Source: Eledone cirrhosa (taxonomy: Eukaryota). From it: DNA of 64,000 nucleotides. Below the pieces are notes generated by a model that was not told where the DNA came from, searched no databases, and saw only the letters and a list, made by a program, of their open reading frames with translations. The DNA is taken from assembly GCA_964016885.1 (NCBI GenBank), contig OZ024741.1:194370001-194434000 (forward strand). The letters are read 5' to 3'. Below are positions 33,241-33,803 of this stretch, piece by piece. A program made the position numbers and the translations under genes. Position 1 is the first letter of the stretch; each line of letters begins with the position of its first letter.

Positions 33241-33803
33241 TATTTATATGCATACTAATACTTCCGTATACATATGTAGATGTACACTTTAACTTAATTG
33301 TTTAAGCGTCAGTCATACAAAAGTGAGTTAGAAGCGAAACGAAATTTAATTTCGTTTCGTTATTTGTTTTCAATGACTCACGTTCTATGCAAATTAGTCT
33401 ACCCACTACTAATTTTCATAGAAAAAGCATATAACGATATGTGCTTTTACAATTCTCCAGAGAAGCCGGAAGATGGGTAAATATTGCTGATGAGATGTAA
33501 TAACATCGAAACTAGTCCAATATTCCTGTCTGGCCCTCTGGAGAATAGAGGAAATGTGTTTCCTTGAAAACTCGTATGATTCTAAAACCCGGTCCGTCTG
33601 TGTGGTTACATACAGACTAGCTGACACTCACTGTAAATTGTCTAGTGAAAAACTTAGTACATGTACATATGTATACATGTGTGTATTTATATGCATACTA
33701 ATACTTCCGTATACATATGTAGATGTACACTTTAACTTAATTGTTTAAGCGTCAGTCATACAAAAGTGAGTTAGAAGTGAATCGAAATTTAATTTCGTTT
33801 CGT
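33241..33803 (+). mobile_element. Retrozyme-like unit, 443-bp period (~1.3 copies)
   Basis: ~120-bp direct repeat at 33241 and 33684 bracketing a perfect HHR; flanked by TA tracts. Confidence 0.8.
33480..33524 (+). ncRNA. Type I hammerhead ribozyme (canonical; GUC, cleavage after 33517)
   Basis: AATATTG-CTGATGA-GATGT AATA ACATC-GAAA-CTAG-TC-CAATATT. Stem I extends via ATTCTCCAGAG/CTCTGGAGAAT (33452-33546). Confidence 0.92.

Follow-up and report, generated by a model that had tools for sequence, protein, structure and literature searches.

Metazoan non-LTR retrozymes, as far as the accessible text of PMC7229834 describes them, are tandem, protein-less, low-GC units of about 170-400 bp that each carry one type I hammerhead ribozyme, fold into a highly self-paired predicted circle and co-occur with Penelope-like elements (PLEs). 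Expression and circles were shown for these elements, and circularisation of the monomer by a host ligase was shown for axolotl and mussel (PMC7229834). Involvement of PLEs in retrozyme movement has already been proposed, and the same sources, in the parts available, treat as open both the identity of the enzyme that moves animal retrozymes and the role of the circle as template (PMC7229834; bioRxiv 10.64898/2026.07.22.740005). For PLEs themselves, the Anolis element cuts and extends both target strands, with two internal starts of reverse transcription defining the tail, and two fixed internal ends, one per arm, are described as unique to this class (PMC11167929). The footprint, in the available account, is an inverted truncated copy, a tail at one end only and (TA)n targets (PMC8557442).

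Here we have analysed a window of 64,000 nucleotides from Eledone cirrhosa (contig OZ024741.1), whose 3.0-Gb genome is rich in TA microsatellites, together with the wider hammerhead repeat family (family A) to which one insertion in this window belongs (Table 1). The window element is almost certainly a retrozyme, and its family is a young member of the known non-LTR class: the units are tandem, a few hundred base pairs long and dispersed, carry one hammerhead each and contain no ORF. No ORF of at least 120 aa was found within the unit besides microsatellite read-through, and the RT and GIY-YIG ORF of an autonomous PLE is absent. Family A resembles the described metazoan retrozymes in all of the features listed above and differs in its longer unit of 469 bp; it is known from genome sequence alone, whereas expression and circles were shown for the former. 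The accessible text of PMC7229834 contains no description of arms set back to back, of fixed ends or of TA targets, and only proposes a helper. With the footprint of EN+ PLEs, as described in the parts of PMC11167929 and PMC8557442 available, family A shares two internal 3' ends, a tail at one end only, an inverted 5'-truncated partner and AT/TA targets, but its ends are 66-71 nt apart as against 30-40 bp and it has no ORF. A further difference is that priming by the Anolis PLE was called non-homologous (PMC11167929), whereas family A arm ends often have a few TA-like bases in common with the target. The preprint of Li et al. 2026 (bioRxiv 10.64898/2026.07.22.740005) likewise has retrozymes moved by PLE machinery; in its available part the evidence is co-occurrence and pLTR homology in vertebrates, whereas here it is insertion anatomy and chimeras. 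The contribution of this study is thus new evidence on the helper of a known retrozyme class. The best explanation of the data, to which we assign a probability of about 0.72, is that a protein-less hammerhead repeat, probably as a circular RNA, is copied into (TA)n by the reverse transcriptase and endonuclease of a PLE.

Table 1. Features of the family A insertion and its surroundings, in positions of the 64,000-nt window
Feature	Position	Strand	Remarks
Whole insertion, one-armed family A copy	33241..33808	+	about 1.2 units; ends at the family's long 3' end; 99-100% identity to the best 40 of 1204 candidates
Terminal repeat, first copy	33241..33361	+	5'-truncated portion of a second unit
Unused short-end site	about 33299-33304	+	within the first terminal repeat
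Predicted long-range closing helix	33311..33581	+	33311-33318/33574-33581; two double changes relative to the 472 family
Junction of private 26-nt deletion	33370..33371	+	starts exactly at the family's long-end site
Predicted hairpin	33384..33422	+	ATGCAAATTAG/CTAATTTTCAT; common to the 472 family
Predicted extended stem I domain	33452..33546	+	outer 11-bp helix 33452-33462/33536-33546
Type I hammerhead	33480..33524	+	predicted cut after C33517 (GUC)
Hammerhead stem I	33480-86/33518-24	+	AATATTG/CAATATT
Hammerhead core CUGAUGA	33487-93	+	
Hammerhead core GAAA	33508-11	+	
Hammerhead stem II	33494-98/33503-07	+	GATGT/ACATC
Hammerhead CUAG loop	33512-15	+	
Terminal repeat, second copy	33684..33808	+	ends at the long 3' end (putative start of reverse transcription)
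5'-side target microsatellite	33113..33240	.	(TA)n-type; TTTGTG motif flips orientation just before the element
3'-side target microsatellite	33809..34651	.	(TA)n-type; common to the 472-bp insertion
Sister family B	34652..35992	+	2.9 copies of the 472-bp unit; ends at the matching long end

An earlier note on this DNA had described a hammerhead between direct repeats of about 120 bp; both are real, and all of the motifs and helices that it quoted lie where it had placed them. The two repeats, 33241-33361 and 33684-33804, are 443 nt apart and identical at all but 2 of 121 bases, but the 443-bp unit of that note has to be corrected, as the family unit is 469 bp and the window copy lacks 26 nt after 33370. 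The 469-bp family, its two-armed insertions and the link to PLEs had escaped that note. The junction of this deletion occurs once in the whole genome. The window copy has only one hammerhead and no second arm, and two consecutive units with hammerheads, by which Li et al. define an active element, are present in family A but not in this copy. The copy is itself ordinary, and the interest lies in the family's insertions outside the window. The orientation of the degenerate TA repeats (33113-33240 before the A insertion, 33809-34651 before the B insertion) is reversed immediately ahead of each insertion's 5' end, which is possibly the trace of a missing second arm or of a target fold-back.

The 40 copies scored after a genome search with the window unit are spread over many contigs, and the tandem period of family A arrays is 469 bp. 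A pattern common to families A and B gave 10,978 matches (control 0), with type A making up 38 of the first 100 listed; a second pattern gave 5,631 (control 2), of which 96 of the first 100 belonged to family D, a close sister of A with a unit of 465-468 bp and a GUU site. Family B hammerheads have a GUA site and a U.U at the base of stem II. Variants like A or D are also present as contigs in three sequencing runs, whose source is not recorded as RNA; unit-length contigs that return to their own start (X2, X7) were rejected as evidence of circles, since tandem DNA yields the same.

Other hammerhead repeats were encountered in the course of this work. A 310-bp tandem family at 46985-48876 and 52390-53971 of the window has its own type I hammerhead (11 motifs, with a palindromic CGCG loop and a GUA site), showed no clear resemblance to A or B and forms inverted pairs elsewhere (L257, L277); its two arrays in the window, with their flanks, look duplicated. 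At about 16600-17300, two family B arms with decayed hammerheads stand back to back in an older insertion, and an inverted pair of another hammerhead-like motif with a CUGAAGA core (37616, minus strand; 37855, plus strand) lies inside a long TA run and resembles an element in L101 and L108. The scan gave a single occurrence of a hammerhead-like motif whose stem II has 12 bp (63419-63464). Loci L170-L189 hold at least five further hammerhead families, with 2,311 matches in all to a pattern that is two bases too long for the clan of A, B and D; several are in inverted pairs with two ends in TA, and one (L171) lies downstream of a GIY-YIG fragment.

Insertion anatomy was examined in 43 family A insertions, obtained from 50 fetched loci and two extensions after overlaps were merged and a duplicate (L130) and an older pair (in L008) were dropped; the choice of loci required an intact hammerhead and is thus biased toward long arms. 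In 28 of these insertions two arms stand back to back with their 5' ends joined, usually over an overlap of 1-5 bases, and the inverted partner is 5'-truncated; the other 15, including the window copy, are one-armed. Only two end points occur among the 71 arms, a long one at family position about 130 and a short one at 59-65; they are about 68 nt apart and lie 225-300 nt downstream of the predicted cut site. The two kinds of end are paired strictly: of 28 two-armed insertions, 27 are long+short, one is long+long and none is short+short (P 2e-7 against independent ends). The tail stands at one end only. The 5' breakpoints are scattered, with 3 of 70 near the cut site against 1.9 expected and thus no enrichment, and 47 of 69 arms are longer than one unit. 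The insertions end in (TA)n, into which 63 of 71 arm ends run and in which a target-site duplication is not readable. Genome-wide, a pattern for the exact long end, common to A and its sister D, has 1,934 matches (control 0), and the short-end pattern has 778 forward matches, in D-type copies only. Inverted pairs occur in families B and D and in the 310-bp family as well, B and D using matching ends.

These data bear on a reading in which the arrays are a satellite evolving at the DNA level by unequal crossing-over and fold-back palindromes, with the hammerhead as an inactive relic. Arrays of more than 14 units do exist, as do local duplications (L120, L227), and the sole long+long pair (L026) has identical ends and flanks on both sides, as expected of a DNA-level duplication. 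Fold-back, however, would copy one end, whereas the two fixed ends differ in 27 of 28 pairs. Simple fold-back is ruled out by the frequent cases in which the short arm exceeds its partner in length (L003, L004, L120). Copies that are 99% identical occur on many different contigs, and the helices covary. The end pairing largely refutes this reading, which we regard as extremely improbable.

Two young PLE families in the same genome make insertions of the same form. PLE1 (L190; 973 candidates, the best 40 at 99% or more) has pLTRs that are 98.8% identical, a match to RT PF00078 just under the cutoff (E 7e-7) and a GIY-YIG domain (PF01541) at its C-terminus, and PLE2 (L229; 1070 candidates) has an unbroken 775-aa frame, read as RT and GIY-YIG by motifs and by 66% DNA identity to PLE1. 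Long+short inverted pairs were found directly in 7 of 30 PLE1 loci, and in 4 more with extensions, the ends being 41 nt apart; PLE2 gave 10 long+short inverted insertions among 30 partly overlapping loci, with ends 68 nt apart as in family A. No inverted same-end pair was seen in the sampled loci of either PLE. A separate upstream frame of 400-450 aa overlaps the RT frame in both L190 (1921-5571, minus strand) and L229 (3788-7257, plus strand); canonical PLEs are described as single-ORF. The window has its own decayed PLE fragments at 11747-12734 and 56431-57276, both on the minus strand (weak GIY-YIG match; RT-like frame). The family of the former has 55,675 candidate matches, and it was rejected as the current helper because it is old, with at most 88% identity to its relatives.

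Chimeras connect the retrozymes with PLEs. In one (L127+L222), a long arm of family A adjoins, in back-to-back orientation, 41 nt of A, which continue into a PLE1-type arm that ends at the PLE short end without a remainder of A; in the other (L207+L228), family B runs into a PLE1 arm and short is paired with short. Both therefore involve PLE1-type sequence (94.6% and 99% to the L190 copy), with its 41-nt spacing, and neither of the two PLE chimeras found involves PLE2, though the PLE2 spacing fits that of A. In L132, the partner of A is a third element, with an end spacing of 69 nt. A further candidate chimera, L136, proved to be a separate PLE2 insertion 1.4 kb away.

From the fixed ends, the inverted partners and the chimeras, we consider it very probable that family A is moved by PLE machinery. 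Another enzyme, such as that of the abundant RTE-type LINEs, could instead move the copies, the likeness to PLEs then arising from a common preference for TA runs. A 5'-truncated RT/PHD LINE fragment abuts the TA run just upstream of the insertion (32088-33110, minus strand), a long open frame of that family exists (746 aa, in L173), and the retrozymes share no sequence with PLE1 or PLE2. This alternative is nevertheless very unlikely, given that two fixed internal ends, one per arm, are reproduced by both PLEs of this genome and that both protein-coding chimeras found are with PLEs, a count made without a systematic search for LINE chimeras. The CUGANGA..GAAA motif was not found in PLE1 or PLE2, and the best blastn match of the retrozyme to these two PLEs had an E of 0.19, leaving no pLTR homology to either. 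Because the candidate helpers lack both hammerheads and homology, the retrozyme here seems to be a passenger of its current helper and not an offshoot of that helper's pLTR. The same lack, which leaves no evident basis for recognition of the RNA, counts against the PLE reading, as does the small number of PLE chimeras.

Variants within the insertions indicate how the two arms are related to their template. Position 441 has three alleles (19, 19 and 4 loci), and both arms agree in 26 of 26 loci where chance agreement would be 0.42 each. Scored against column majorities, 65 variants are fixed within a locus, 17 of them private to one locus and several present in every unit of both arms, and a further 108 are single and 14 partial. 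We conclude with good confidence that both arms were copied from one RNA. Whether that RNA was a circle is a separate matter, as the earlier suggestion of slightly more than one round on a circular template fits the window copy, but a single locus cannot separate it from an uncut multimer. The same PLE helper might copy an uncut linear multimer, the hammerhead being kept for 5' processing or RNA stability and circles being no intermediate. The Anolis PLE did use unprocessed RNA, with hammerhead cleavage unneeded in vitro (PMC11167929); the arms cross the cut site freely, helix III is weak, and long arrays homogenise locally, as the 14 partial variants show; the uncut transcript of an already homogeneous array would also give one haplotype. 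Against this, locus-private variants fixed in every unit of both arms (445G in L025, 287C in L125 and 396G in L126, each 4/4) point to a bottleneck of one unit. Unit-private variants are common to several loci in just 24 of 108 cases, which a rough estimate puts near chance. Finally, the deletion in the window copy begins at the long site, at a distance of 438 nt from the 3' end, where the first round of a circle would close, a placement seen in one of six indels. The multimer is accordingly an unlikely template in our judgement, and a circle the somewhat favoured one; in these sequences it is the locus-private variants that lean toward a monomer circle.

The earlier note had also proposed compensatory covariation with the 472-bp family and, from it, selection on RNA structure. 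For stems I and II this stands: between A and B there are 5 double changes and 1 broken pair among 12, against null means of 1.4 and 5.9 (P 0.0008 and 0.0025, respectively), which supports structural selection in a comparison of essentially two lineages, so that few independent lineages are involved. Across four anchored helices, with the closing helix and the hairpin that follows the core added to stems I and II, 8 of 27 pairs have double changes and 1 is broken. In a set of 11 representative sequences, pairing holds in 88% of cells and both partners have changed in 6 of 13 pairs, compared with 29-50% paired in a control with partners slid; these sequences are related to one another, hence the comparison of A with B alone. 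The short-end hairpin, distal helix, P83 and octamer helices were left out for doubtful register or lack of variation. The distal helix has to be withdrawn from the proposed covariation, as the helices of A and the 472 family differ in distance from the core and represent shared structure rather than site-by-site covariation. In stem II the quoted pairs are confirmed, with the addition of the U.U that the 472 family has at the place of the closing G-C of the window unit, which had been omitted. The circular 469-nt fold has a z of -14 against 40 shuffles. Selection would seem to act on the whole RNA and not on the core alone, because the predicted circular folds of A, B and D share the same branch layout and the fold is stronger on the sense strand. 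The covariation is thus the mark of a lineage that, judged by its sequences, has been under structural selection; it is not proof of self-cleavage by the window copy.

The hammerhead of the window copy has the CUGANGA and GAAA core, an NUH site, helices I and II and an open end at helix I, and its region folds better than shuffled sequences (z -5.35; 0 of 200 as good). To call it textbook, as had been done, overstates it, as helix III is not a stable helix but a single A-U pair closed by the palindromic CUAG. Because helix III is so short, the match to Rfam Hammerhead_HH9 is weak (E 8.6e-7; 31.8 bits, below the gathering score of 52), and no Rfam match at gathering score was found in the whole window; matches to Rfam microRNAs were dismissed as TA-palindrome noise. 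Closing helix III within one motif has a computed cost of 5.9 kcal/mol, and the two-molecule duplex a computed energy of -6.2 kcal/mol. As far as PMC7229834 is available, invertebrate hammerheads are described with a two-pair helix III, and the nearest known forms include the satellite-type hammerheads of newts. The axolotl HHR_Amex1 is alike in its one-pair helix III and palindromic tetraloop, cleaving weakly as a monomer and efficiently as a dimer, and HHR_Amex2 has the same U.U at the foot of helix II that the 472 family has (PMC7229834). Family B combines both of these weak features. The window hammerhead, by the computed energies, probably needs a dimer for cleavage, so that a cleavage assay on the single-hammerhead window copy could give a false negative. 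Lack of cleavage has precedent, having been reported in the available part of the preprint for 8 of 9 predicted Xenopus retrozymes (bioRxiv 10.64898/2026.07.22.740005). A role as promoter, after the octamer of newt satellite 2, was considered for ATGCAAAT and found no support, since one copy of family D changes it to GTGCGGAT with the hairpin kept via G.U pairs; other D copies retain it.

The anatomy, the chimeras and the variants can be joined into one sequence of events. Tandem arrays would be transcribed, adjacent hammerheads would pair through their ACUAGU palindromes and release 469-nt monomers, and a host ligase would circularise these. A PLE complex would then nick both strands of a TA run, and reverse transcription would start at the long site on one strand and at the short site on the other, not at the cut site. 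Each cDNA would roll a random distance on the RNA before the two cDNA ends join by microhomology. In the window copy the long arm alone would have been kept, and the reverse transcriptase likely skipped 26 nt on returning to its own start. A bolder form of this scheme, which we put forward tentatively and at slightly less than even odds, is that a hammerhead clan of more than 16,000 copies is propagated by circular RNAs that exploit PLEs unrelated to them and devoid of hammerheads, one PLE dimer priming both TA strands at two sites 68 nt apart on one circle and rolling two cDNAs at once.

We found no reports of two-armed retrozyme insertions, of retrozyme-PLE chimeras or of the long+short rule in the accessible parts of the literature searched, supplements and subscription journals lying outside that search. 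This genome provides a ready test set, with a young substrate that has no ORF, two mapped starts, a (TA)n target and a candidate helper of matching spacing whose RT/endonuclease frame is unbroken. The strict long+short pairing in both retrozymes and PLEs constrains how PLEs make inverted insertions. If the bolder scheme is true, these insertions would record for the first time, directly in a genome, how the circles of animal retrozymes are pasted back, and would explain why PLE insertions carry a tail at one end only.
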